DNA of 64,000 nucleotides from a phage: sequence record PZ386957.1. One strand, 5' to 3'. The position numbers were made by a program, and so were the translations under genes. Under the pieces are notes generated by a model. That model ran no database searches. It was not told the origin of the DNA and was given only the letters and a program-made list of their open reading frames with translations. Shown piece after piece: positions 21,599 through 52,791 of the stretch (positions within the stretch are counted from its first letter, which is position 1; every line of letters starts with the position of its first letter).

Positions 21599-21889
21599 TC
21601 AAATGGTAGTTTTGCGAAGATGGTCATTACATGCTTTTAATGCATCAGTCGCGGTGTCATAGCGAGTATTATCATAGCACCAATCACCATCCGTCAACTG
21701 ATAAATTAATCCATCCTTTTTAGCTTCGATGAAAGATAACTCTTTGAAAGTTTCTACTTTCTTTGCTGACACTCCACGGTCACGGCGTTTGTAAAGTTTC
21801 TTTAAAACTCTTTCCGCTTGTTCTTCTTTCTCGCCAGACAGATCCCAGATAATGCTACGGATATGTTTGATCATTTGTTCGGTGTTCAT
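21599..21889 (-). CDS. Hypothetical protein
   Basis: 96-aa ORF after promoter/leader 21919-21946. Confidence 0.5.
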   Translation of the reverse strand: MNTEQMIKHIRSIIWDLSGEKEEQAERVLKKLYKRRDRGVSAKKVETFKELSFIEAKKDGLIYQLTDGDWCYDNTRYDTATDALKACNDHLRKTTI

Positions 21890-21918
21890 CTTTGATTCTC
21901 CTTAGTTGGTATGTGCGC

Positions 21919-21946
21919 ATTATAACATTGGGATTTTCATTGTCAA
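21919..21946 (-). promoter_or_regulatory. Promoter TTGACA-16-TATAAT
   Basis: Minus-strand read; immediately downstream of terminator 21958-21988; RBS AAGGAG. Confidence 0.7.
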
Positions 21947-21957
21947 CACCTAAAAAC

Positions 21958-21988
21958 AAAAAGGCTATCCCGAAGGACAGCCCATAAA
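21958..21988 (-). terminator. Intrinsic terminator after the glycine-rich protein gene
   Basis: GGGCTGTCC-TTCG-GGATAGCC hairpin then TTTTTGTTTTT. Confidence 0.7.
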
Positions 21989-21990
21989 AA

Positions 21991-22809
21991 TTACACGCGA
22001 GCACCGTAGATCGTGCCAACTTTAGTCCATGTTGGGGCATTACCAGTAACAGCTTTACCAGCAGCACCACCAGGCCACGGAACACCAGCGCGACCAGTAC
22101 CATCATACCATGAGTCGTTAGCCTTAGCACCTGCTTGACCAGCGTCACCACCGTTACCAGCATAATATATATTACCGTTATACGATCCTCTACCCGGCGC
22201 GGTATATGTAGCAGCGGTTGACCCTATTTCCATGTTGGAATATGCACCAGCCGCACCATAAGGACGACCACCACCACCACCCATTGACAACCCAATGATC
22301 GGATAATATGAGTAATAAGCACCGCCACCGCCACCGCCACCGCCAGCGATGACACCATTATTTGTGATGCGTAGACGTGTACCGATACCATTATTGATAG
22401 CAGTCCCGCCAGCTTGTCCAGGACCAGTGCTGGAATTAGTACCGCCATCACCACCCTTACCACCACGACCCCAAACATGGACACCTGGGTTAATGTTTAA
22501 TGTAATATACTCATTAGCAAGATCGCTAGGAAAATCGAGACACGGAACACTAGCAGAATGAGAAACAATATCCCCGGTAATGGTAATTACTACCGGAGTA
22601 GACCCGTGTGATCTTAGATAACTAATCAAAGTATCTTTATTGTAACTATGGTTAGACCCAATACTATAATAAACCTCTTTAGAACGTCCCACCATCGCAC
22701 TCATCCAAGCCGGACGACCTAAGCGTACAGCTTCCATTGCGGCACTCATCCACCGTTGGCCTGTTTCATTAACGGCAGATGATCCTACCCATCCAGAAGA
22801 TATTGCCAT
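21991..22809 (-). CDS. Glycine-rich protein (N-terminal globular region + Gly/Tyr-rich low-complexity region)
   Basis: 272 aa; runs GGGGGGGG, GGKGGDGG, MGGGGGRPYGAAG; correct strand and terminator; alt-frame ORFs over it are GC artefacts. Confidence 0.6.
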   Translation of the reverse strand: MAISSGWVGSSAVNETGQRWMSAAMEAVRLGRPAWMSAMVGRSKEVYYSIGSNHSYNKDTLISYLRSHGSTPVVITITGDIVSHSASVPCLDFPSDLANEYITLNINPGVHVWGRGGKGGDGGTNSSTGPGQAGGTAINNGIGTRLRITNNGVIAGGGGGGGGAYYSYYPIIGLSMGGGGGRPYGAAGAYSNMEIGSTAATYTAPGRGSYNGNIYYAGNGGDAGQAGAKANDSWYDGTGRAGVPWPGGAAGKAVTGNAPTWTKVGTIYGARV

Positions 22810-24443: not shown

Positions 24444-26591
24444 TTATTCTCGTCCATTTGTATAGTAGTGTTTGAATCGCCCATAGCCAGTTTCAATAGA
24501 CATATCTTTCTGTCGGACAATCGCCCAATAGCCATTGCATGAATCTTGCAAATACAGATCCTTACCTTTTAGGAACTCGTTAAAGATCGTAATCTGCCAA
24601 TCATAATAGACGGCATCAGCGAGACTATCCATCCAACCATGTGGATCATCCATCAGTTCGACAAGCTCATCGATAACCCAATATGGACACGGGCTAAATT
24701 TACCTTTACTAAAATCATTGAACAAGGTAACAAGTTTAACTTCCGGTCGCGGTTCATCCGGCTGCACAGGTCGTTTATTAACCACAACCTGTACATATTT
24801 CGTATACCCGATGATTTCGCCGGAGTCAAGAGTATCGTTATTGTTCTTATCTGCATAAGCCACAAAACGATAAACACCGGAATCATTTATTGTTGCATTA
24901 GCTTTACGGTAAATCGGCACGCGAGAATCAGCAATAGGTAATTTAACACCAGCTTTGCTAAACTCATAGGTAGGTACATAATCAGCCGGAGGCTTCAACA
25001 TGGTAGCCTCAAGAACAAGCGGTTCACCTTCCGTAATCTGTACCGGATGCGGACCATCAAATTCCATATTAGGCACTACCTCAACATGGTAGGTAGCGCG
25101 TGCTGCAATATCGTAATCGGTATGCGCACTATATGGATCTTTACTCGGACTATCGCGGTATTCATGCGACCAGATACCGTTATGGTCTCGGTCTGCGGAA
25201 TCAGTGATCTTATACTCTTTCGCTTCAATAGGCAAATCTGCGACTTTAACATCATTTTTCAGAATTACTAATGAACGCGTTTGAGTCGGATCACCGCTTG
25301 CTGGCGGTTCTGGATCGACGATCTTAATTACAATCGGTTCACCAATCTCAATATTACGATAATCATATTCTTTATCGTAAATGTCAAGCATACGGCGGTC
25401 ATAGAACAAAGGACGTCCGGTCGGTGTTCTCTGCGGATCATCATCACGCGCGGGAGCCACCAACAGTTGAAGTGCTACGCTATCGTCATATTGCAATTCA
25501 TTAAGCGTAATGCGGTCATATCCCGGATCACCGTATTTCTTGCTTTGGAGTTGCTTACCGCCTAGCATCCACGTAAAGTAAACATTATTTGCAAGCATAC
25601 CATAATGGCGGTTCCATGAGTTATCCGCTGGTAATACTGGCATATCAAAGTTTACTTCCGATCCAGAAGGATAACGAAATTCGATTGCTGCAAAGTCATT
25701 ACGGAAAAATTCGTTTTCCTTAACTTTGACAGTAAATCGGTGTCGCTGCCCTTCAATGAATGATTCACCAGCACCAGGTCCATTAACCACTTTATAGGAG
25801 CGAACGCAAGCTACATATTCACCTGCATCATTTTCGGTAGCATGTTTGGTTGCATAGAGTGTTTTGTTGGTAGACTCATAAACAAGAGTACCGTCGCCAC
25901 GCTCTAAGCGATACCTTACAATGGTATGCTCTGCGTCATTAGGCGCATCATCTTCTACCGTGAAATAAGCTGGTGCATATTTCTGGACATTGAATACTGC
26001 GGGATTTTCCTTAATATCGGCAACAAACGGATAAACAAATTTAACGTCGCCGTGTTCGTCGCTCAATTCCATTCGGTAATTACCGGAAAATTCAGGCCAT
26101 GCAAATTTTGCAATTTTAAATTCACGATGGTCTAATCCCAGATCACCATCAATGGAATCAACGAGGCCATTATTATAATACAGGTCAACCGAAATATTAG
26201 CCGGAATATTACTACGGAAAACAATTTTTGCTTTAATTTCATCACCAATATCAAAAGACGTTGGAGGATGAACATATTCGACAAAGACATTATCGAATAA
26301 ACTAAAGGTAAAGTTTTCCGTGCCGATATCTACGGATTCGCCAGAAAAATTTTCATCATCTTGCGCATAACCACGAAGGTTAACAGACCATCCGGTTTTA
26401 TCCTCTTCTTTCACTGAATCCAATACATAGGAAGGAGTTGCAGTAGTCGCAATGACCTTATTGTCTTTCTTCCACGTAAAACCCTTTTTAGGTTTAGTTG
26501 GTTCAGGGGATTCCCCAGCAAGGGAACAAGCGAAAGTATGAGGAAGCCAAATGGTAGTATTAACGCTAGTATCTTTATTTTCTACTGGCAT
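24444..26591 (-). CDS. Large protein with Ig-like repeat signatures
   Basis: 715 aa; repeated D.G.Y.C motifs (DAGEYVACV, DSGVYRFVA) typical of Ig-like beta-sandwich domains. Confidence 0.6.
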   Translation of the reverse strand: MPVENKDTSVNTTIWLPHTFACSLAGESPEPTKPKKGFTWKKDNKVIATTATPSYVLDSVKEEDKTGWSVNLRGYAQDDENFSGESVDIGTENFTFSLFDNVFVEYVHPPTSFDIGDEIKAKIVFRSNIPANISVDLYYNNGLVDSIDGDLGLDHREFKIAKFAWPEFSGNYRMELSDEHGDVKFVYPFVADIKENPAVFNVQKYAPAYFTVEDDAPNDAEHTIVRYRLERGDGTLVYESTNKTLYATKHATENDAGEYVACVRSYKVVNGPGAGESFIEGQRHRFTVKVKENEFFRNDFAAIEFRYPSGSEVNFDMPVLPADNSWNRHYGMLANNVYFTWMLGGKQLQSKKYGDPGYDRITLNELQYDDSVALQLLVAPARDDDPQRTPTGRPLFYDRRMLDIYDKEYDYRNIEIGEPIVIKIVDPEPPASGDPTQTRSLVILKNDVKVADLPIEAKEYKITDSADRDHNGIWSHEYRDSPSKDPYSAHTDYDIAARATYHVEVVPNMEFDGPHPVQITEGEPLVLEATMLKPPADYVPTYEFSKAGVKLPIADSRVPIYRKANATINDSGVYRFVAYADKNNNDTLDSGEIIGYTKYVQVVVNKRPVQPDEPRPEVKLVTLFNDFSKGKFSPCPYWVIDELVELMDDPHGWMDSLADAVYYDWQITIFNEFLKGKDLYLQDSCNGYWAIVRQKDMSIETGYGRFKHYYTNGRE

Positions 26592-28500: not shown

Positions 28501-28906
28501 TAATGATTTCTTCTACGCATTCCCATTCTAGGCCGCCAATCCCACAACCAATTTTAGGAATATAGAACGGCTTAACAGTACCTTCAAATGCGAAGTTAAG
28601 TTGTTCGAATCCACGGATGATAGCGGAATATTCAGCATTTGGTCCTGGACGGAATTGCGTATAAAGATTAATACCCATCCAGTTATAACCATTAACGGTA
28701 TGATGCCAAACATTAAACTCGCCTAGCTTACTAGCCGTTCCTCTCGGTGTCTTTTTGTCAGTAGCCAATGCTTGTGGGAACTCTTTTGCGATCTTTGCAG
28801 CAATACCAGCGCCCATAGTATGAAAACAATTACAACCATGAATCAAATGACCGTTTCCTTGTTTAAACAGGGCGATGAGATCGCCCTTTACAGTATCAAT
28901 AATCAT
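28451..28906 (-). CDS. Macro-domain protein (TARG1/OARD1-like ADP-ribose hydrolase fold)
   Basis: 151 aa; GDLIALFKQGNGHLIHGCNCFHTMGAGIAAKIAKEF fits the TARG1-type macro core (H-C-x-x-x-MGAGIA). Confidence 0.6.
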   Translation of the reverse strand: MIIDTVKGDLIALFKQGNGHLIHGCNCFHTMGAGIAAKIAKEFPQALATDKKTPRGTASKLGEFNVWHHTVNGYNWMGINLYTQFRPGPNAEYSAIIRGFEQLNFAFEGTVKPFYIPKIGCGIGGLEWECVEEIINDFTPDINIVVVEYEA

Positions 28907-32547: not shown

Positions 32548-33039
32548 TCAGTTGATACCTAAGCCAATGAAAATAGGTTGGTCTTCTACATTACCCATCC
32601 CAACACTAAGTCGATTTACTTCTAAAAACTGCAATACGCTGTCAGTAAATCCGCGCATGGTAGTATCTAGGATAAAAATTGTTTTGTCAAGCCGACGACC
32701 TCGCCATGTAATCGGATTCAGGAAAGTTCGGATAGACGTGCAATCTATATTTGAAATGTTGATATTTTCACCACGACCGCGATCTCGGATCGTTTTGGCA
32801 TGTTCCCGCGTCGTTGAAACGATAAAGACACTATAGCCTTTTCGCGTATAATGGTCATATAACTTGATTGTAGCGTCTGTATGCCCTGTTTGACGTCCTA
32901 AATTGATTGAGACGATGGAATCTAGGTCATCAGCAAAATTGCGCTTCTTACGGCGTTCTATGATGCCATTTACGGAAGAAACACACATAGCATAAATCAA
33001 ATCTTTACTTTCTAATTCTAAATCAATGTCAATATTCAT
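32548..33039 (-). CDS. Hypothetical protein
   Basis: 163-aa ORF. Confidence 0.5.
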   Translation of the reverse strand: MNIDIDLELESKDLIYAMCVSSVNGIIERRKKRNFADDLDSIVSINLGRQTGHTDATIKLYDHYTRKGYSVFIVSTTREHAKTIRDRGRGENINISNIDCTSIRTFLNPITWRGRRLDKTIFILDTTMRGFTDSVLQFLEVNRLSVGMGNVEDQPIFIGLGIN

Positions 33040-33099
33040 AATAAGTCTCCAGTAAACGGGGAGAGATCCTTAGATTGTCTCCCCATTGATGGTTAATAA

Positions 33100-33489
33100 T
33101 TATTTTGGATCTGGGTAAGCAGAACTCAGCAATTCAAAATGCACACCGTCTTTGAATGCCAAAAAATCCCCGCCCCATTTAATCGGAATATTCAATTCCT
33201 TACTAGCTTGTTTAAATGCATCAGCGATCATTCGGTAATATTTCATGTTCCATGTATCCTTATCTTTCGGATACGCTACAACATCAACCGCGAAGCCATG
33301 AAGATGGCGAGATTTCATAGTCTTAGACTTACCTTCCGCAAAATATTTCTTCTGCGTTTCCAGACTGCGCACACCTTCCGTAATGCCAAAATCTACAGGA
33401 GTTAATTCAAGTGCGCGAGTCGCCACCTTAACCAGATCTGGATGCACACCAACAAGTCGGTCTTTACTTCTTTGAGATAATTTAAACAT
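33100..33489 (-). CDS. Peptidase M15-type cell-wall hydrolase (putative endolysin, L-Ala-D-Glu peptidase-like)
   Basis: 129 aa; zinc-peptidase motifs SRHLHGFAVD and DGVHFE. Confidence 0.7.
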   Translation of the reverse strand: MFKLSQRSKDRLVGVHPDLVKVATRALELTPVDFGITEGVRSLETQKKYFAEGKSKTMKSRHLHGFAVDVVAYPKDKDTWNMKYYRMIADAFKQASKELNIPIKWGGDFLAFKDGVHFELLSSAYPDPK

Positions 33490-33517
33490 TATTCACCCCC
33501 TTTGTGAGTGATAATAT

Positions 33518-33709
33518 TTAGATTCCGGTGATCCTGCATAGAGTTCTTGTATTAGCACCAATCAGGATAGCATTAACGACAACCATTCCCCAATCAACCC
33601 ACGGATTATTATAAATGCTGAATCCGTTTGCAAGGCCAAATACAAGCATTCCGGTACACATACTCAGAGCAATAATCAACATCACGGTAAAACCAAATGC
33701 AAATTTCAT
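33518..33709 (-). CDS. Small membrane protein (2 TM)
   Basis: 63 aa, almost entirely hydrophobic. Confidence 0.5.
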   Translation of the reverse strand: MKFAFGFTVMLIIALSMCTGMLVFGLANGFSIYNNPWVDWGMVVVNAILIGANTRTLCRITGI

Positions 33710-33710
33710 A

Positions 33711-33941
33711 TTATTTTCCTTTTCTCTGTTTACGTTTATAAAAGTAATACATTACCTCATCGCGTCCGGTGATCCAACATGCTAGGGCAGTAAACAAGTT
33801 TACAATTCCCAACACACCTACGGATGCGGCGCTATCAACGGACATAGGAACAGTAAAGGCCATAGCTAGCATCGCAACGCCACAAATGATATTAAGCACC
33901 ATTATAATAAGACCGAAGAAAACCATTGTCAATCCTCCCAA
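33711..33941 (-). CDS. Small membrane protein (2 TM)
   Basis: 76 aa hydrophobic with basic C-terminus. Confidence 0.5.
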   Translation of the reverse strand: MGGLTMVFFGLIIMVLNIICGVAMLAMAFTVPMSVDSAASVGVLGIVNLFTALACWITGRDEVMYYFYKRKQRKGK

Positions 33942-34120
33942 ATAAGAAAACCAACAATCACACCCATAATAAGAGAGGATGCACCACTAATCAAGCAACC
34001 CGCGCCAAGTGATTCCCACCAGATCAGGGAAGCGACAATAACGCAAAATCCCCAGACTACCGCAATTATAACATAGACAAACATAATCCAAAATAGATAC
34101 TTGTTCATAATAAATCCCAT
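33929..34120 (-). CDS. Small membrane protein (2 TM)
   Basis: 63 aa hydrophobic. Confidence 0.5.
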   Translation of the reverse strand: MGFIMNKYLFWIMFVYVIIAVVWGFCVIVASLIWWESLGAGCLISGASSLIMGVIVGFLIWED

Positions 34121-34293
34121 TCACCAATCAAATATGAAAATAGCCAAATAAACAGAAACGAGACAATTGATCCAGCAAGCAAAATAATATTAGAGAATCC
34201 GCCGTTTATCCAGTCGATCAAACAGAATATTCCAGTATAGAAACACAACCCAATTACAAAACAGACGATAAGCAACCATAGGTAAAACGCCAT
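34105..34293 (-). CDS. Small membrane protein (2 TM)
   Basis: 62 aa hydrophobic. Confidence 0.5.
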   Translation of the reverse strand: MAFYLWLLIVCFVIGLCFYTGIFCLIDWINGGFSNIILLAGSIVSFLFIWLFSYLIGEWDLL

Positions 34294-34515
34294 AGAAAGC
34301 CCTCCAGTGAGCTAAATTAGTGCGGGTAGTACATTCTCCTACCCGCGTTGTTAATCATCGTATAGCGTGTTCTATGGCGACTCCTACAAGGCCACTAACA
34401 ACACCAGTACAGAAAGCAACTAGAGCATTCATTCGGTCTTTAGGGATCATTGCAAACAGTACAACACCCACACAGAAAGCCATCACCATTGAAGTTAACA
34501 TTTGTTCCATCATTA

Positions 34516-34854
34516 TTACACCTTTAAAGTCATAGACGCATAAACATTAATACCAGGCCAATTGGGATCACAATTATACTCAACATCCCACAAATAAAGC
34601 GGTTTGGATGTATCAGCCAAGTTTTTAAAATCTTCTACCCACATTTCAAGGCTATAGGATGGATAAACTAGGCTATCATATCCACCGTAACGTTGGCCTA
34701 CTGGTCTGTCAGTAAAAACTACCTCAAGATCCGGTAATTCTTTTTCTAGGATAACCGCCAGCGCATAAATCAGGCGGTCTTCCTTGTTACGCTGCCGTAG
34801 GACCGTTGTCAGTTGGTTCTTCTGGTTCACTAGCAAGTACCTCCACATTTTCAC
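34516..34854 (-). CDS. Hypothetical protein
   Basis: 112-aa soluble ORF. Confidence 0.45.
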   Translation of the reverse strand: MKMWRYLLVNQKNQLTTVLRQRNKEDRLIYALAVILEKELPDLEVVFTDRPVGQRYGGYDSLVYPSYSLEMWVEDFKNLADTSKPLYLWDVEYNCDPNWPGINVYASMTLKV

Positions 34855-35125
34855 AGAATGAAATTTTCACGGACACAATTTTACCATAAGTGAAGAATGA
34901 ATATACATTATCGAGATATTCAACATCACCTACAATCACATCAAACTGCGGGTCAGCCACTGCCGCAACATATTCTACCAGTTCATCAAGAGAATGCAAC
35001 TTAATTTCATCAATTCGGCTATATTTGGTTGCATCTTTAATTTTAAAACCACGTTCTTTCAGCTTATCAATCAGAATTTCACGCGGAGTTTCAAACAGTT
35101 TGCTCATAATATAATCCTCACACAA
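34787..35125 (-). CDS. Hypothetical protein
   Basis: 112-aa ORF; start likely the internal MSKLFETP. Confidence 0.45.
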   Translation of the reverse strand: MCEDYIMSKLFETPREILIDKLKERGFKIKDATKYSRIDEIKLHSLDELVEYVAAVADPQFDVIVGDVEYLDNVYSFFTYGKIVSVKISFCENVEVLASEPEEPTDNGPTAA

Positions 35126-35129
35126 TTAA

Positions 35130-35324
35130 TCAATGGTCAATAATCTTACACATTACAATTGAAAGAACAAAGACAGCAACCCACATATAGATCCCAGCAA
35201 TCAGGGCAATTTCAATCTCACAGTATCCAAGAAGTACAACAGGAATAAAAACAAACATACAGACCAGCGCAAAGAAACTAGCAAAGGCGCTCGAAAATCC
35301 GATGGCAGTATTAGTAATCTTCAT
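35130..35324 (-). CDS. Small membrane protein (2 TM)
   Basis: 64 aa hydrophobic. Confidence 0.5.
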   Translation of the reverse strand: MKITNTAIGFSSAFASFFALVCMFVFIPVVLLGYCEIEIALIAGIYMWVAVFVLSIVMCKIIDH

Positions 35325-35330
35325 ATTAAG

Positions 35331-35528
35331 TCATCTCACAGTTTTATAAATGAAAACAATAAAATCCCAGACAAAAAAGACAGTGAAAATAATCATCGTC
35401 AAGACAGTAAACACTGTCAGATTTTCATCGTTAGTTAATTCATAGTCGCCCATCCATACAATCACAAGATATAGCATTGAAAGAACGGAAGCACCTACGA
35501 AGTTGAAAAACATATTCTTGAGCGTCAT
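35331..35528 (-). CDS. Small membrane protein (2 TM)
   Basis: 65 aa hydrophobic. Confidence 0.5.
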   Translation of the reverse strand: MTLKNMFFNFVGASVLSMLYLVIVWMGDYELTNDENLTVFTVLTMIIFTVFFVWDFIVFIYKTVR

Positions 35529-35529
35529 A

Positions 35530-35712
35530 TTAACAATCCTCGCGGCTTAAGTCAACTGCAATTGCATACAGCATAATGAATATGCTAGCAGATCCTAGAA
35601 TCAATGCACCTTCACATGTTGTAACCCGCTCGTCAAAGTATAGCATCAGCCATCCGAGGATGTTAAAGGCGCATACAGCGCCTATGTTGGCTAACCAATT
35701 AATCTTTTTCAT
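35530..35712 (-). CDS. Small membrane protein
   Basis: 60 aa hydrophobic. Confidence 0.5.
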   Translation of the reverse strand: MKKINWLANIGAVCAFNILGWLMLYFDERVTTCEGALILGSASIFIMLYAIAVDLSREDC

Positions 35713-35720
35713 ATTGTACC

Positions 35721-36048
35721 TTAGAAAGAAACTGTTTTCAAGAAATCCAGATTTTCAGTGCCGAAAGTAGAAAAGTAGTGTTTTCCTTTTTCGGTTTTAG
35801 AGAAAGCGATTGTCTTCTCTACATGGTGACGGAAGCCAGACAGACGATCACCCAGATCAAGGCGGCAAGCGTAAGTAGTGCCGTTTTCGAAAGTAACCTC
35901 GATTTGAGTTTTGTCATATTCGCCTTCATAGGCTTTTGCTGCGGCGTCCTGTGCTTTACGCTCGAAGTCTTCGAAGTGGAATACTTCGTTTGCGTTAGCG
36001 AATACGGAAGATTCAGAGAAGATAACTTTAACAGATACTGGTTTCATT
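35721..36048 (-). CDS. Hypothetical protein
   Basis: Start reassigned to MKPVSVKV after promoter/leader 36085-36113; about 109 aa. Confidence 0.5.
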
Positions 36049-36084
36049 TTGATACTCCTTTGTGTGTTTCGTTTCGATGGGTGT

Positions 36085-36113
36085 ATTATGCTATACACCC
36101 TATCGTATGTCAA
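36085..36113 (-). promoter_or_regulatory. Promoter TTGACA-17-CATAAT, -10 inside inverted repeat GGGTGTAT...ATACACCC, CATCGAAACGAAACAC leader
   Basis: Minus-strand read upstream of 35721-36048. Confidence 0.65.
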
Positions 36114-36120
36114 CAACTTT

Positions 36121-36309
36121 TTAGTCTTTTTTCATAATTTCTAGGGCAGCTTCTACCGCACCTTTCCAACCTTCCCACATGATGGACATGGTAAGGAAGT
36201 TAAAGCACCCGCAGGAATCGGCCTTTTTAGAAATAAACCATTCTACAAACTCTGTGCTAATGCCATTCTCTTTAGCAGATTCGCGCAGTTGTTCAATCTG
36301 GTCTTCCAT
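36121..36309 (-). CDS. Hypothetical protein
   Basis: 62-aa ORF. Confidence 0.45.
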   Translation of the reverse strand: MEDQIEQLRESAKENGISTEFVEWFISKKADSCGCFNFLTMSIMWEGWKGAVEAALEIMKKD

Positions 36310-37091: not shown

Positions 37092-37120
37092 AATAAAAAA
37101 GCCACTCCGAAGAGTGGCTT
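37092..37120 (-). terminator. Intrinsic terminator capping the ORF-free region
   Basis: AAGCCACTC-TTCG-GAGTGGCTT then TTTTTTATT. Confidence 0.7.
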
Positions 37121-37269
37121 ATAGGGAAGGTAGCGAATCTTCCTTGTCTCCAACCTGCTAGCGGCCTAGCAAGTGAATGCTTTAGCGTACCGGATTACCC
37201 CCATACGCTGTAATAAATGCGGCTAGGTGACGTCCAAATCATTCTAACCGCGCTGTTTTTAGTTCACTA
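37121..37269 (-). ncRNA. Putative structured small RNA (ORF-free, terminator-capped)
   Basis: About 150 nt with no ORF on the coding strand; several local hairpins; ends in intrinsic terminator 37092-37120; T4 carries stable RNAs in the analogous region. Confidence 0.25.
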
Positions 37270-37488
37270 TTATTTATATAGCTTTCTATCGCTACGTTTC
37301 CGGTCTTCTTCCTTGATACAATTAAATGCATCAAACAGACACATACCGCTGATAGTGAACATGATCAGGTTTTCGACGATATCCCACGTTTTAGCCCCTG
37401 TGCAGATATTCCAAACAGTCATAAAAGCAAATAGTGCAGAAGAGATCACAAGCATGATACTTGCTAAGATATAAAAAGTCATTTTCAT
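37270..37488 (-). CDS. Small membrane protein (2 TM)
   Basis: 72 aa hydrophobic. Confidence 0.5.
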   Translation of the reverse strand: MKMTFYILASIMLVISSALFAFMTVWNICTGAKTWDIVENLIMFTISGMCLFDAFNCIKEEDRKRSDRKLYK

Positions 37489-37679
37489 GGTTTTACCTCA
37501 ATTCTTCGATATTCATCACACATCCACGCAGTAAGCAAGAATCCCATCACATAAGCAACAAAATACGTTAATGCTTCTTCTGGTTCGGTGCTATGCGCCA
37601 TCATCAGACCAGCGAGAAAGGTCTTAACAATTACATTTAAAATAATTAGCCACGCAAATAATTTCATCGTTTGCCCCAT
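37485..37679 (-). CDS. Small membrane protein (2 TM)
   Basis: 64 aa hydrophobic. Confidence 0.5.
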   Translation of the reverse strand: MGQTMKLFAWLIILNVIVKTFLAGLMMAHSTEPEEALTYFVAYVMGFLLTAWMCDEYRRIEVKP

Positions 37680-37906
37680 TTCGGACGAGATTTTTCAAAT
37701 TTATACATTCCGTAACAATCTCGGATCATCCACGTAACAAGAGCACCAGTCAATACAGAAAGTACACAGAAAAAGTAAAACGGTCCAGTTGCATTGTCAA
37801 CATGAGCAAGCCAGGTAAAGAAAGCACATGCTAAGAACGTAAAGAACATCATAAAACACAGGAAAGCGAAATATTTTATGCTACTCATAGCGCCACCATA
37901 CAACAA
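37664..37906 (-). CDS. Small membrane protein (2 TM)
   Basis: 80 aa hydrophobic. Confidence 0.5.
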   Translation of the reverse strand: MLYGGAMSSIKYFAFLCFMMFFTFLACAFFTWLAHVDNATGPFYFFCVLSVLTGALVTWMIRDCYGMYKFEKSRPKWGKR

Positions 37907-37991
37907 ATCATAAGAAAGCCCAACGCAATAAGAATTGCATCAAATTTAGTGAACTCCGGTCCACCTATCAACATCATTCGTTCTATCTCGT

Positions 37992-38237
37992 TCATAGCGT
38001 ACATACCCATCTGAAAGCTCCACATAAAGCGATCAGTAGACTAGGTATAAACGAGACTAAAACAAGATAACAAAAATCATCTAAGGTAACACCGGAATAG
38101 CTACCAACTGTAATCACACCGATGATCAGACACAGAAAGAAAACAAATGCAATCAGAAACAAAGTATTGCTAAACAGTTTAGTGATCATTAGACACCCCA
38201 CGACGGTCAATTTCAAAAACTTTCTTATCACCAACAA
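37992..38237 (-). CDS. Small membrane protein
   Basis: 81 aa hydrophobic; start may be internal. Confidence 0.45.
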   Translation of the reverse strand: MLVIRKFLKLTVVGCLMITKLFSNTLFLIAFVFFLCLIIGVITVGSYSGVTLDDFCYLVLVSFIPSLLIALCGAFRWVCTL

Positions 38238-38388
38238 AGCAGGTCACTACCGCCTCGTTGACTTCCGCAAATTGTTGTGTTACCCACTTAAGGTCATTGC
38301 GCATCAATGTTTTATTAATAACAAATGTTGTGCCTTTCTTATCCTTACCCATAAATTTTGCTTTAACCACATCAAAATCATATTCCAT
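38179..38388 (-). CDS. Hypothetical protein
   Basis: 69-aa ORF. Confidence 0.45.
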   Translation of the reverse strand: MEYDFDVVKAKFMGKDKKGTTFVINKTLMRNDLKWVTQQFAEVNEAVVTCFVGDKKVFEIDRRGVSNDH

Positions 38389-38397
38389 ATTATCACC

Positions 38398-38568
38398 TTA
38401 TTTGCTAATCGCTAAACCCAATCCAAAGAGAGCACCCGATGCTACAGTATATCCGAAAGTTTCAAGGGCAGTAAAGATATCGAAGCCACCAGCTAACAGA
38501 GTTGCAGCAAACATAGAGCCACCTGCGAACATAAACACATTTCCAAAAGTTTTAGCAATAATTTTCAT
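38398..38568 (-). CDS. Small hydrophobic Gly-rich peptide (56 aa), unannotated in track
   Basis: Hand-translated MKIIAKTFGNVFMFAGGSMFAATLLAGGFDIFTALETFGYTVASGALFGLGLAISK; RBS AGGAGAA 6 nt upstream; promoter 38600-38628. Confidence 0.55.
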   Translation of the reverse strand: MKIIAKTFGNVFMFAGGSMFAATLLAGGFDIFTALETFGYTVASGALFGLGLAISK

Positions 38569-38599: not shown

Positions 38600-38628
38600 A
38601 TCTTACTACCCCCGTTTCATGTTGTCAA
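38600..38628 (-). promoter_or_regulatory. Promoter TTGACA-17-TAAGAT, -10 inside inverted repeat GGGGGTAG...TACCCCC
   Basis: Minus-strand read upstream of the 56-aa peptide gene. Confidence 0.6.
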
Positions 38629-39121: not shown

Positions 39122-39592
39122 TTACAGTTTGGTCGTCCACTCCAGATCTAGATCTTCGACATACTCATGAGATCGGACAATCTCTAAATCGAACTCTAGG
39201 TCAGTGCCAAATTTACGCGCACCAACATCATAAGAAAGCGTGATATGCGGTACATATTCAGGATAATCCCACGTCGCACCTAAAGCAGTTCCGATATCGT
39301 GTCTGAATTGCATGTAGTCGCTTTCAAATGCCAGCACAAGTGCATTAGTACCGGATTGAGTTTCAAACACTTTCAGATGGCATAGAGAGCCTAAGAACTT
39401 CTCCCCTTCTTCTGGGATAAACGGAACATAAACACGAGAATATAAGATAGTGCTATGCAGTTTATCACGAGGAACGGCATTAGGAAGATCGTAGAACTCT
39501 TGCAATTTTTCAATGCGGTCTAGTGTATCCTCAGTGAATTTAACCGCCGCATATGTACCTTTAACGGATTCTTTGAACGGGGTCATAATCAA
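39122..39592 (-). CDS. 57B: 2H phosphoesterase (gene 57B position; Acb1-like)
   Basis: 156 aa; two H-x-T/S-x motifs (LHSTIL, PHITLS) diagnostic of the 2H superfamily; located upstream of 57A/1 as in T4. Confidence 0.7.
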   Translation of the reverse strand: MIMTPFKESVKGTYAAVKFTEDTLDRIEKLQEFYDLPNAVPRDKLHSTILYSRVYVPFIPEEGEKFLGSLCHLKVFETQSGTNALVLAFESDYMQFRHDIGTALGATWDYPEYVPHITLSYDVGARKFGTDLEFDLEIVRSHEYVEDLDLEWTTKL

Positions 39593-51803: not shown

Positions 51804-52791
51804 TGAAAATAGTGTGATCTATCGCTCAATCATTACTAGCAAATTCAGGACAGAAAAACTTCTGAATTTCTATAATTCAGTGGGTGATGCATCCAATCAA
51901 ATTACAATCTATGGAACGTTCGGACGTTCTACGCCGTGGTCGGAAAACGAAAAAGAGGTGGGCTTCGCGCCCCCTTTCCCAACTGATTCAACGGCTGGTG
52001 TTGTTGACATGTGGTCACATATGATGGGTGTGGTTAAAATTAATAAATCTCTTCTTGATGCGGTTATCCCTCGTAAAGATTGGGGAGATACCGGACAAGA
52101 TAACCCGCGCACATTCTTTATCAATGATATTGTGGTAGTAAACTCAGCGCCATATAACCGTACAGATGTTGGTAGCGGTTGGATGGTTTATCGTGTGACC
52201 GATGTTCCTGATCGCGGTTACTGCTCGATTTCAAGCATTGACGCTAAAGTAGAGTGTTTGAAGCTGGGCGGAAAGTGGACACCTACCCATGAATCAATTG
52301 CGCCACCTGTAGGAAAGGGAGATTCTATTGATATGGGTGATGGATATCGTTGGGAATATCTGTACACAATTCCGCCTGATGCGGCGATCAACCGTTGCAC
52401 CAATGAGCATATTGTTGTACCGTTCCCTGATGAACTGCGACAAGATCCGGCGCGTTGGGGCTATGACAATGTGATCACCTGGTATAATGACTATAATCTG
52501 CTTTATCGGCTGAAAGTAGTAACTTTGCGTTTTCAGGCTTATATGGACTCTGCGCAATTCCCAACTTCCGCGTTAGTTGGTAACACTGGTTTCCGTCAGT
52601 TAAGCATTATCCTTAACCCATTGGAAAAGAAAGCGCGACCTAGTGATCCAGATGTTAAAGCTGTTAAAGATAAGTACCGTCCGCAAGACTTAGAGCCACA
52701 CTCAGGCGAAATGATCTACATGGAAAACCGACAACCTATCGTTCGTTCACTCGATCAAACAGAACTTGTTTCTGTATTGTTTGAGTTCTAA
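51796..52791 (+). CDS. 8: Baseplate wedge protein gp8
   Basis: 331 aa (T4 gp8 is 334 aa); conserved order. Confidence 0.85.
   Translation: MANENSVIYRSIITSKFRTEKLLNFYNSVGDASNQITIYGTFGRSTPWSENEKEVGFAPPFPTDSTAGVVDMWSHMMGVVKINKSLLDAVIPRKDWGDTGQDNPRTFFINDIVVVNSAPYNRTDVGSGWMVYRVTDVPDRGYCSISSIDAKVECLKLGGKWTPTHESIAPPVGKGDSIDMGDGYRWEYLYTIPPDAAINRCTNEHIVVPFPDELRQDPARWGYDNVITWYNDYNLLYRLKVVTLRFQAYMDSAQFPTSALVGNTGFRQLSIILNPLEKKARPSDPDVKAVKDKYRPQDLEPHSGEMIYMENRQPIVRSLDQTELVSVLFEF

Follow-up and report, generated by a model that had tools for sequence, protein, structure and literature searches.

The window analyzed here, a stretch of 64,000 nucleotides from the phage sequence record PZ386957.1, is a segment of a Krischvirus genome (RB49-like, T4-type coliphage). 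The region from 33518 to 35712 carries eight minus-strand genes for small membrane proteins of 52 to 71 amino acids, indicated here as A, B, C, F, G, H, I, and J (Table 1). The operon runs in the order LPD25-domain gene, A, B, C, D, E, F, stem-loop, G, H, I, and J, and is packed with ATGA overlaps and spacers of 1 to 6 nt. The dense array of at least seven small hydrophobic protein genes described in a first-pass annotation of this DNA is real and, with eight genes, slightly larger than claimed. The genes had been called consecutive or nearly so, and the cluster indeed exists, but D and E, which are conserved and encode soluble proteins, interrupt it. An additional 52-amino-acid gene, placed at 34358 to 34516, is present as gene F and annotated in every relative examined, with its position corrected by 3 nt to 34355 to 34513. 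The upper size of 76 amino acids, which referred to gene I, should be lowered to 71, the ATG after a GGAGG being the more likely start. Moreover, since all the genes in the region are on the minus strand, the array lies upstream (5') of the endolysin gene (33489..33100) and not downstream of it, as had been stated.

Table 1. Features of the array, the adjacent endolysin gene, and the second cluster (gene coordinates of the array include the stop codon)
Feature	Coordinates	Strand	Remarks
Putative promoter, sigma-70-type early, TTGACA-17-CATAAT, A-rich stretch upstream	36085..36113	(-)	Operon head; 11/12 match
LPD25-domain gene, first of the operon, soluble, 108 aa	35721..36047	(-)	Pfam PF18840, E = 1.4e-14; dN/dS 0.27
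Gene A, 60-aa two-TM hairpin, acidic loop DERVTTCEG	35530..35712	(-)	phrog_16425; dN/dS 0.24
Gene B, 65-aa two-TM hairpin, invariant acidic loop GDYELTNDEN, dispensable	35331..35528	(-)	
Gene C, 64-aa two-TM hairpin, two allelic forms across the genus	35130..35324	(-)	
Gene D, 106-aa soluble ORFan	34787..35107	(-)	dN/dS 0.08
Gene E, 104-aa soluble ORFan, GTG start, 44-nt overlap with D	34516..34830	(-)	dN/dS 0.04
Gene F, 52-aa two-TM hairpin, basic loop PKDRMN	34355..34513	(-)	phrog_16035
Stem-loop F/G, 8 bp, GC-rich	34322..34346	(-)	ARNOLD terminator annotation in G2494
Gene G, 62-aa two-TM hairpin, zero Lys/Arg	34105..34293	(-)	phrog_19354; dN/dS 0.31
Gene H, 59-aa two-TM hairpin, ATGA overlap with G	33929..34108	(-)	phrog_16151; dN/dS 0.20
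Gene I, 71-aa two-TM hairpin, strongly basic C-terminal tail	33711..33926	(-)	dN/dS 0.04
Gene J, 63-aa hairpin directly 5' of endolysin	33518..33709	(-)	dN/dS 0.19
Hairpin with late-promoter-like box TCTAAATA (33522..33515) within its 5' arm	33483..33522	(-)	
Endolysin, M15 peptidase, 129 aa, without signal or SAR sequence	33100..33489	(-)	Pfam PF13539; endolysin annotation in relatives
P, small membrane protein	38398-38568	(-)	Second cluster
dmd	38179-38388	(-)	Within second cluster
O, small membrane protein	37992-38189	(-)	Second cluster
N, small membrane protein	37885-37995	(-)	Second cluster
M, small membrane protein	37664-37888	(-)	Second cluster
L, small membrane protein	37485-37667	(-)	Second cluster
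K, small membrane protein	37270-37488	(-)	Second cluster
Acb1	39122-39592		Anti-defense gene in same region

A second early cluster on the same strand (37270 to 38568) contains six further small membrane protein genes, arranged around dmd, a gene which in T4 shares one operon with sp. Genes O, N, M, L, and K are linked via ATGA overlaps, and the cluster has a putative promoter at 38628 and a terminator at 37120 to 37099. Overall, early promoters are predicted at 36113, 37067, 38628, and 39079, and stem-loops at 37120 to 37099 and 39115 to 39096.

The array genes are real and under purifying selection. Shine-Dalgarno-like motifs precede all eight of them, they are intact in 10 to 13 relatives (in the comparison of 10 isolate genomes, six of the eight are intact throughout, while B and C vary), and their dN/dS values range from 0.04 to 0.31, thus being below 1 throughout. 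Furthermore, of the 24 six-frame ORFs in the window that have two or more TM segments, 7 are located in the 2.2 kb of the array (Poisson p = 2.5e-5), and 14 of the 21 "novel" RB49 ORFs with TM helices lie within ORF103c to ORF124c (hypergeometric p = 3e-13). A frame check found gene A open in 10/10 isolate genomes (the 011D4 annotation calls just 117 nt), and gene B is missing from JSE, Makalu_003, and SSG23 and frameshifted in W115 and 011D4. As for gene C, the window has the JSE-type allele, to which the full-length Phi1-type allele is 34% identical (E = 5e-12), with flanks that are 96 to 98% identical. Gene F shares just 78 to 84% nucleotide identity with the isolate genomes. Gene I is the most constrained of the array, and I and J, the best conserved, apparently occur in every Krischvirus record. 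The window is mosaic across F to J, with F, G, H, and P nearest to a metagenomic lineage, and its combination of A, B, and the JSE-type C is new.

All eight genes are genus-restricted ORFans. In a tblastn search of the eight proteins against 50,697 phage records, matches occurred only in the same 59 Krischvirus records. Gene I is represented by 10 protein clusters, all with at least 79% identity, and neither a word-indexed search nor a HMMER profile search run exhaustively over 1.84 billion representatives returned homologues outside Krischvirus-like phages; gene J is represented by 6 protein clusters only, all at least 89% identical and all Krischvirus-like.

The two-helix membrane character proposed in the first-pass annotation holds for each protein, on the basis of Kyte-Doolittle profiles in the window and published TMHMM predictions for the RB49 orthologues. 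In particular, the GRAVY values of the eight proteins are between 0.84 and 1.73, and two 17-residue Kyte-Doolittle segments above 1.6 are found in seven of them, J having one strong and one weaker segment; for RB49 ORF103c to ORF112c, the J orthologue included, two helices each were reported in 2006. The AlphaFold2 model of gene I (pLDDT 79) consists of a helix at residues 2 to 25, a turn, and a helix at residues 30 to 69. Among the 13 two-TM proteins of both clusters, most have acidic or uncharged loops and Lys/Arg residues at the termini, and the predicted periplasmic loops span just 7 to 18 residues. The clear exception to this positive-inside pattern is F, the sole basic-loop hairpin of the array, which possibly has the opposite membrane orientation, given its basic loop. 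TM2 of H features a small-xxx-small zipper (G37-S41-S45-G49-G53), and the helices of I contain Asn residues (N12 and N43). The distribution of variable sites among loops, helices, and tails showed no overall trend, just gene-specific invariant segments, namely, the periplasmic loop of B and the cytoplasmic tails of I and L.

The suggestion that the array might be a duplicated family found no counterpart in the comparisons carried out. The eight proteins fall into eight separate PHROGs, all of them function-unknown matches. Smith-Waterman comparison of 91 pairs, with 300 shuffles each, gave a best z of 3.8 and only two pairs with z > 3, a result without significance once multiple testing is corrected for, and the best probability in an all-versus-all hhalign comparison of the family alignments, whose profiles are shallow, was 10.9%. 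An ancient duplication is nonetheless conceivable, since these hairpins diverge very fast, as the two C alleles illustrate. Pfam returned for the eight proteins only subthreshold noise (BILF1, SHP, and Phage_holin_3_5, the last with E = 0.17), and no sequence or profile similarity linked the hairpin families to T4 e.2, e.3, e.4, trna.4, Imm, Imm.1, or Sp. When the AlphaFold2 hairpin of I was compared with viral models, the sole significant match was the Phi1 orthologue, the remainder being generic helical hairpins. Genes D and E have no Pfam or PDB sequence match, and AlphaFold2, run on the single sequence of E, gave a model (pLDDT 68) with no fold match. A candidate sRNA showed no relationship to T4 rnaC/rnaD, nor any in Rfam or tRNA scans.

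The sole promoter predicted to serve the array is of the sigma-70 early type. It is the positional equivalent of RB49 Pe:57746, with the next predicted early promoter downstream at 52389; the RB49 early promoters are consistent with 5'-end mapping, and RB49 has neither motA nor a middle mode (Nolan et al.). Promoter and terminator activity has been demonstrated for the PeSL-type promoter/stem-loop cassettes of the genus. No late-promoter box with up to one mismatch occurs on the coding strand between 33523 and 36113, the next one on this strand being at 37278. The F/G stem-loop, which has no U-tract and is followed by no promoter, is probably an attenuator or RNA-end element and could lower the early expression of G to J. 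From this sequence context, we infer that the array is expressed early; no published work on the expression or function of these Krischvirus ORFs turned up in our literature search, nor did transcript, ribosome-profiling, or proteomic data for any Krischvirus. A promoter-like site (33932 to 33904) was also observed inside the H/I junction, in bases that double as coding sequence.

At the endolysin start, a hairpin of about 15 bp contains in its 3' arm the Shine-Dalgarno sequence and the AUG of the gene. This structure (dG -12.3 kcal/mol, z = -4.97) is 100% identical in 13 relatives, and 0/200 shuffles fold as well. The spacing of 33 nt between the late-promoter-like box and the ATG is that of other late boxes in the window, and a transcript from about 33509 would lose the hairpin. 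The box matches at just 7/8 positions, with a C at the second one, which is rare outside phage Aeh1, and no late promoter was predicted there (Nolan et al.).

The best explanation of these observations is that the eight are ORFans independent of one another, located in a "hyperplastic region" of the Krischvirus genome. Superinfection exclusion or membrane-targeting host takeover, both already suggested in the first-pass annotation, is compatible with all the findings and is the reading we prefer. More specifically, we tentatively propose that the array encodes early, dispensable, and fast-evolving accessory proteins of the inner membrane, whose role would most plausibly be superinfection immunity or envelope protection. 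Host RNA polymerase would transcribe one operon from the promoter at 36113 and continue into the endolysin gene. Each product would form a helical hairpin in the inner membrane of Escherichia coli, in most cases with the two termini cytoplasmic and a short acidic loop in the periplasm, and would act in the first minutes of infection as a dispensable accessory factor, not as a lysis protein. The endolysin would stay silent on the early read-through RNA, in which its ribosome-binding site is predicted to be sequestered, because the conserved hairpin would bury the Shine-Dalgarno sequence and the AUG; the box in the 5' arm would then yield late, translatable transcripts lacking that arm. The most probable job of the hairpins would be to shield the envelope of the infected cell from further attack, through an Imm-like superinfection immunity in which inner-membrane routes of DNA entry are plugged or altered.

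We infer the topology of the hairpins from their charge pattern and an exclusion or conflict role from several other features. In Phi1, the one relative whose annotation was considered, imm and sp are unannotated at their T4 positions; T4 Imm is itself a small two-TM protein; dmd, an operon partner of sp in T4, is embedded in the second membrane gene cluster, with Acb1 and Dmd in the same region; and the loss or frameshift of B, the diverged alleles of C, and the mosaicism of F to J point in the same direction. Against exclusion, 13 different hairpins far exceed the number used by any exclusion system known to us, and, to our knowledge, the hairpins of known exclusion systems share their architecture with holins and small toxins, from which they are not distinguishable.

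The same neighborhood would also suit a role in counter-defense, which we consider rather unlikely and in which the hairpins would bind, early and within the bilayer, membrane-embedded or membrane-attacking immune effectors of the host (for instance, pore-forming effectors of abortive infection, channels of the Rex type, or membrane sensors) and so neutralize them. The proven anti-defense genes acb1 and dmd are nearby, the first gene of the operon encodes an LPD25 "polyvalent protein" domain, and arms-race genes would be expected to show what is seen here, namely, an early-promoter context, restriction to the genus, presence/absence polymorphism, and strongly diverged alleles. However, co-location is weak evidence, because all nonessential genes of T4-type phages cluster in hyperplastic regions, and dN/dS is below 1 everywhere. 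Moreover, the characterized phage anti-defense proteins that we know of are overwhelmingly soluble.

It is less probable that each protein serves host takeover by binding and inhibiting or retuning an inner-membrane complex of the host (for transport, respiration, secretion, division, or proteolysis) or by mildly depolarizing the membrane, with the physiology of the host being shut down or redirected as a result. The early operon context would agree with this, the intrahelical Asn residues of I and the small-xxx-small motifs of the H zipper favor helix-helix binding, and the invariant segments of B, I, and L suggest specific partners. However, conserved host targets fit poorly with the loss of B and the 34% identity of the C alleles, other coliphages face the same host without any homologue, and no partner can be named.

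A holin/antiholin role had been suggested in the first-pass annotation from the proximity of the lysis gene, and it is conceivable that I and/or J, perhaps with others, act as a second holin, pinholin, or antiholin tuning the adjacent M15 endolysin. The array genes lie directly 5' of the endolysin, which has no signal sequence and therefore needs a hole-former, and the genus-wide conservation of I and J would be in line with such a role. Like a class II holin, I combines two TM helices with a highly basic C-terminal tail in only 71 residues, and the holin hallmark of a TM helix followed by a charged hydrophilic C terminus is clearly recognizable in it (7 K/R in the tail, variable at 1/18 sites); the other seven array proteins have TM helices, but their tails are weak or acidic. 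However, late expression together with the endolysin, as expected of a holin, is at odds with the early promoter and with the fact that none of the eight genes is preceded by a late box, and the endolysin hairpin implies that the upstream region is transcribed when lysis has to be avoided. No holin family was matched, the best hit being that to Phage_holin_3_5 noted above. Furthermore, Phi1 has a canonical T4-type holin t beside the tail fiber genes and rI/rI.-1 annotated elsewhere, and the T4 PseT.3/PseT.2 spanin families have members in RB49, Phi1, and JSE, so that no lysis function is missing; in T4-type phages, lysis genes are, moreover, unclustered. The idea that this endolysin travels with a holin-like neighbor was rejected, since in Vibrio phage 10AMN, which has the nearest non-Krischvirus endolysin found (56% identical), the upstream gene is soluble. 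A T4 RI-type antiholin, which has an N-terminal signal anchor and a periplasmic domain binding that of the holin, was likewise rejected, as the periplasmic loops here are only 7 to 18 residues long and an rI orthologue is annotated elsewhere in Phi1, and so were spanins, there being no periplasmic domain and no lipobox. The holin/antiholin suggestion is thus unsupported, and a lysis-timing role of the array proteins is unlikely.

Least probable of all is that the genes are diverged paralogues of one old family forming a single hetero-oligomeric membrane complex or channel, as the uniform size (52 to 74 amino acids), the hairpin design with acidic loops, the tight translational coupling through ATGA overlaps and 1- to 6-nt spacers, and the weak similarity between the tails of I and M (W-x-x-RD...MY-x-F-x-K...GK; 45 columns in hhalign, with just 4.5% probability) might suggest, against which stand the nonsignificant pairwise and profile similarity, the separate PHROGs, and the independent loss or swap of B and C, unlike obligate subunits.

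A broader reading, which we regard as improbable, would make A to J and K to P (14 proteins in 5 kb) a diversified "battery" of bilayer-embedded blockers, with each hairpin plugging a different inner-membrane route by which competing phages bring in their genomes or disarming a different membrane-acting defense effector of the host. If this were true, B loss, C replacement, and mosaicism would be the footprint of an arms race, and the region would be an exclusion/anti-defense island made wholly of transmembrane microproteins, a class with almost no characterized members.

Several known systems can be compared with the array. Class II holins or pinholins, such as S21 of phage 21, resemble I in size, in the two TM helices, and in the charged C-terminal tail, and an endolysin gene is nearby here as well. 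They differ in that the array has an early-promoter context, no dual-start motif, no family match, and a non-SAR endolysin. T4 Imm, which is made early, is an 83-amino-acid two-TM inner-membrane protein and is nonessential; the array proteins match this small two-TM architecture, and their early timing is suggested by the promoter context and the endolysin hairpin. According to its annotation, Imm alters the membrane in such a way that the DNA of a superinfecting phage is left in the periplasm. However, the hhalign probability of Imm is at most 1.7% with all 14 families, which fall in separate PHROGs, and Imm is encoded by a single gene and not by an array and has a basic loop and probably the opposite orientation. 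The T4 genes e.2, e.3, e.4, and trna.4 encode predicted membrane proteins in the same interval (vs.8 to 57B/gene 1), 5' of e, and trna.4, with 61 amino acids and two hydrophobic stretches, is like the array proteins; however, hhalign probabilities are at most 6%, and e.2 to e.4 are longer (102 to 130 amino acids).

With the ORFan cassettes that are flanked by PeSL elements in T4-type hyperplastic regions (Arbiol et al. 2010, PMC2839356), the array shares the restriction of homologues to the phage type, and the region has sigma-70-like early promoters and stem-loops, as well as indel and replacement polymorphism (B and C). Unlike in such cassettes, no promoter/stem-loop pairs visibly bound the B and C indels and replacements within A to J; the pairs flank larger units (36113; 37120/37067; 39115/39079).

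The closest counterparts are RB49 ORF103c to ORF112c and ORF118c to ORF124c, Phi1 ORF103 to ORF112, and JSE 00107 to 00115, which are the same genes in the same order with 78 to 97% nucleotide identity; in phage W115, the orthologues are annotated as "putative membrane protein." Since two-TM predictions for the RB49 orthologues have been published since 2006, the array is already known and not new as a feature: small membrane ORFan clusters of T4-type early plastic regions have been in databases and supplementary tables since 2003 to 2006, and the window adds one allele combination. What stands out is that about 14 tightly packed and selectively maintained genes for tiny inner-membrane proteins occur in a well-studied phage group. 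Should they be exclusion or counter-defense factors, they would represent a largely unexplored class of proteins of intrabilayer phage-host and phage-phage conflict, relevant to phage cocktail design, as Krischvirus phages are in therapeutic use. The most concrete new point may be the endolysin hairpin. At the syntenic locus, T4 gene e likewise has its late-promoter box within a hairpin that hides the ribosome-binding site, but its product, a GH24 lysozyme, is unrelated to the M15 peptidase of the window; the gene e arrangement would have been either kept or reinvented by an unrelated endolysin.

The genes of the array belong to the minus strand, which carries every gene from approximately 31 to 42 kb of the window (the GC skew was also computed). 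The coding-strand order is promoter, LPD25 protein, A, B, C, D, E, F, stem-loop, G, H, I, J, and endolysin, where A to C and F to J encode small hairpin membrane proteins and D and E soluble ones; it follows that, along the transcript, the array lies upstream of the endolysin, and not downstream of it, as the first-pass annotation had stated. The interval is flanked by vs.8, vs.6, nrdC.11, and regB on the low-coordinate side and by dmd, 57B, 57A, and gene 1 on the other. By megablast, 59 phage records match positions 33000 to 36200 with about 88 to 92% identity, all of them from Krischvirus (RB49-like, Straboviridae). Among the relatives, JSE (L004, 397 to 972) has an extra 191-aa ORF between vs.8 and the endolysin, and a homing-endonuclease/HNH-type gene occurs between nrdC.11 and vs.6 in 011D4 (L002, 2419 to 2949) and in a metagenomic contig (L013, 7892 to 8419).

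Features of the array, its surroundings, and the early region (window coordinates)
Feature	Position	Strand	Remarks
Small hydrophobic candidate ORFs	21855-22163, 22224-22484, 26132-26290, 28528-28713	minus	2-3 predicted TM segments
Endolysin, M15_4 peptidase	33100-33489	minus	Pfam on the window's own ORFs
Endolysin hairpin	33483-33522	minus	about 15 bp; 5' arm 33520-33506
Array	33518-35712	minus	Lengths (aa): A 60, B 65, C 64, D 106 (soluble), E 104 (soluble), F 52, G 62, H 59, I 71, J 63
Promoter-like site, TTGACA-17-TATTAT (11/12)	33904-33932	minus	straddles H stop and I start
Stem-loop after F	34346-34322
LPD25 protein	35721-36047	minus	Pfam on the window's own ORFs
Sigma-70 promoter, consensus TTGACA-17-CATAAT	36113-36085	minus	heads array operon
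DUF7421 gene, 61 aa	36807-36992	minus	Pfam E = 4e-40
Other sigma-70 promoters	37067, 38628, 39079	minus	head neighboring units, beside GC-rich stem-loops
Candidate small RNA	37095-37278	minus	late-transcribed candidate; RNA 37265..37095
Intrinsic terminator of candidate small RNA	37120-37099
Exact TATAAATA box	37278..37271		overlaps gene K stop codon
Second cluster	37270-38568	minus	order P, dmd, O, N, M, L, K
Dmd	38179-38388	minus	Pfam on the window's own ORFs
Acb1 = 57B	39122-39592	minus	Pfam on the window's own ORFs

The second cluster, around dmd, comprises six further small membrane proteins (K to P), with ATGA overlaps joining O, N, M, L, and K. The four small hydrophobic candidate ORFs found elsewhere in the early region have no PHROG match at an E value of ≤0.01, unlike all 14 proteins of the two clusters. 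The DUF7421 gene is 72 to 77% identical at the nucleotide level to genes in many T1-like siphoviruses (about 50 kb; SH6, Tuinin, damhaus, pSf-1, and others), which points to horizontal transfer between groups of coliphages that are not related.

We confirmed, with corrections, the hydrophobic array that had been noticed in the first reading: GRAVY values range from 0.84 to 1.73 for all eight small proteins, and two clear hydrophobic segments are present in seven of them, J featuring one strong segment and one weaker. The density is non-random: of the 24 ORFs in all six frames of the window that have two or more TM segments, 7 fall within the 2.2 kb of the array (p = 2.5e-5). Each of the eight genes is preceded by a Shine-Dalgarno-like motif, with spacers of 1 to 6 nt or ATGA overlaps between genes, and, except for the different states of B, the frames are open in 10 isolate genomes and three metagenomic contigs. 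The dN/dS ratios (Nei-Gojobori) are 0.04 for I, 0.19 to 0.31 for the other small genes, and 0.04 to 0.08 for D and E. Constraint differs gene by gene, the acidic loop of B and the cytoplasmic tails of I and L being invariant or nearly so. On this sequence evidence the array genes are real. The AlphaFold2 model of protein I is a hairpin (helix 2 to 25, helix 30 to 69; pLDDT, 79). With topology predicted from hydropathy and charge only, the array proteins would be early, dispensable, and fast-evolving inner-membrane hairpins, most of them exposing an acidic loop to the periplasm and keeping both termini cytoplasmic, with F possibly inverted.

The promoter equivalent to that of the array operon is Pe:57746 in RB49, and the next predicted early promoter occurs only at 52389 (Nolan et al. 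2006, PMC1524935); since none is predicted between the two, ORF113c through the endolysin is predicted to form one early unit. In the same phage, early promoters are consistent with mapped 5' ends, and motA and middle promoters are absent (Nolan et al. 2006, PMC1524935). No TATAAATA-like box (at most one mismatch) was found on the coding strand between 33523 and 37270. A near-consensus sigma-70 promoter-like site at the H/I junction, if active, would yield an RNA that does not include the start of I and codes for J and the endolysin only, its promoter signal being inseparable from coding constraint. The stem-loop after F may attenuate early expression of G to J.

Among characterized proteins of this hairpin kind, those that can be named confer superinfection immunity, an example being T4 Imm (83 aa, two TM segments). 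Neither imm nor sp is annotated in Phi1 at the T4 positions, and dmd, which in T4 shares an operon with sp, lies among membrane hairpins in the Krischvirus window. For these reasons we tentatively favor a role in envelope protection or superinfection immunity, under which we include the general claim of early non-lytic accessory membrane proteins. Counter-defense against membrane-acting host immunity is an unlikely alternative function, and host-membrane takeover is more unlikely still.

Control of lysis, by holin- or antiholin-like functions as proposed in the first-pass annotation, is improbable, because relatives already hold t, rI, and spanins and the array sits in an early-promoter context. 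In particular, Phi1 encodes a T4-type holin t of 218 aa after the tail-fiber genes and rI with rI.-1 beside tk, and the T4 PseT.3 and PseT.2 spanin families include RB49, Phi1, and JSE; lysis genes are unclustered in T4-type phages. What is said of t, rI, imm, and sp rests on the annotation of relatives, since those regions lie outside the window. Upstream of the closest endolysin found outside Krischvirus lies a gene for a soluble protein. A lysis role retains some residual probability because protein I, a two-helix protein whose tail is basic, resembles a class II holin. An antiholin or spanin role for the hairpins was rejected, their predicted periplasmic loops (7 to 18 residues) being too short. 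Overall, the functional interpretation of the first reading, which had also named exclusion, is partly supported.

That the proteins form a single complex or an old paralogous family is very improbable, and the possibly duplicated family suggested at first could not be detected: each small protein matches, over the full length, a separate PHROG of unknown function, pairwise Smith-Waterman scores are unremarkable against shuffles, and in profile-profile comparisons, both among the 14 families and between these and T4 e.2, e.3, e.4, trna.4, Imm, Imm.1, and Sp, the probability never exceeded 10.9%. A Pfam search of the small proteins returned noise only. The tblastn matches of all eight proteins among 50,697 phage records are exactly the 59 Krischvirus records, and a DNA search at about 65 to 70% sensitivity is consistent with this restriction. 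Among 5.8 billion proteins, protein I is represented by 10 clusters with identities of 79% or more, and a profile search across 1.84 billion representatives added nothing further; for protein J there are 6 clusters, with identities of 89% or more.

Within the genus, gene B is lacking in JSE, Makalu_003, and SSG23 and carries a frameshift in W115 and 011D4, and C occurs as two alleles with a full-length identity of 34% (E = 5e-12), so that the B/C pair shows at least four states in 14 genomes (B absent, B frameshifted, and B accompanied by one or the other C allele). The LPD25 and D genes on either side of C share 95 to 98% nucleotide identity. F, G, and H are only 78 to 89% identical to those of the isolates and, together with P, are nearest to a metagenomic Krischvirus-like lineage (90 to 96% amino acid identity; 90 to 95% for F, G, and H), whereas I shows the reverse and, like L, is nearest to the Phi1/RB49 group. 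Because F, G, and H side with the metagenomic lineage and I with the isolates, the window is a recombinant mosaic.

The array is already known as an annotated part of Krischvirus genomes: its orthologues are annotated as ORFs in RB49, Phi1, and JSE, and seven of them as "putative membrane protein" in W115. TMHMM gave two helices for RB49ORF103c, 104c, 106c (listed twice), 107c, and 110c to 112c, as well as for 118c to 120c, 122c, and 124c, and one for 121c (Nolan et al. 2006, PMC1524935, Additional file 2). From that table we calculated that, of 21 "novel" RB49 ORFs carrying TM helices, 14 lie within ORF103c to 124c (hypergeometric p = 3e-13); smaller runs of such ORFs occur in RB43, 44RR, and Aeh1 (same file). 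Furthermore, novel ORFs are concentrated in the region that corresponds to T4 40 to 75 kb (Petrov et al. 2010), and hyperplastic regions, promoter/stem-loop cassettes, and ORFan turnover have been described for Krischvirus (Arbiol et al. 2010, PMC2839356).

At the end of gene K, we could notice a candidate small RNA, with an exact TATAAATA box, about 170 nt of non-coding sequence with five hairpins (consensus, -60 kcal/mol), and then an intrinsic terminator. It is 94 to 98% identical in 13 relatives, versus only 82 to 85% for the adjacent gene K, and features one compensatory pair (G-C to A-U) and a terminator tetraloop that is either UUCG or GAAA. Comparisons of the candidate with Rfam and with T4 rnaC/rnaD gave no match, and a tRNA scan was negative.

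The sole late-type box near the endolysin, TCTAAATA, lies 33 nt before the ATG, a distance consistent with the window's bona fide late genes (boxes 31 to 41 nt upstream). It is located in the 5' arm of a hairpin whose 3' arm holds the endolysin Shine-Dalgarno sequence and AUG (-12.3 kcal/mol; z = -4.97; none of 200 shuffles folds equally well), and RNA begun about 6 nt past the box, near position 33509, lacks the 5' arm. The 35-nt element is identical in 13 of 13 relatives. The box matches the late consensus at 7 of 8 positions, a variant rare outside phage Aeh1 (Nolan et al. 2006, PMC1524935). We found no literature description of a promoter within a hairpin at the endolysin of RB49-type phages.

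The syntenic T4 gene e has the same layout, with a late box in the 5' arm of a hairpin (-14.9 kcal/mol) that covers the Shine-Dalgarno sequence and AUG; there, two TATAAATA boxes precede the ATG by 34 and 21 nt, the more distant one being in the arm, and, different from Krischvirus, the product is a lysozyme unrelated to the endolysin. McPheeters and colleagues reportedly showed in 1986 that the e hairpin keeps early read-through transcripts from being translated, while late transcripts have their start within it. Given the shared layout, by this logic the Krischvirus genes upstream of the endolysin would be transcribed when lysis must be prevented. In T4, too, genes upstream of e are predicted to encode membrane proteins (e.2, e.3, and e.4), with trna.4 farther up.
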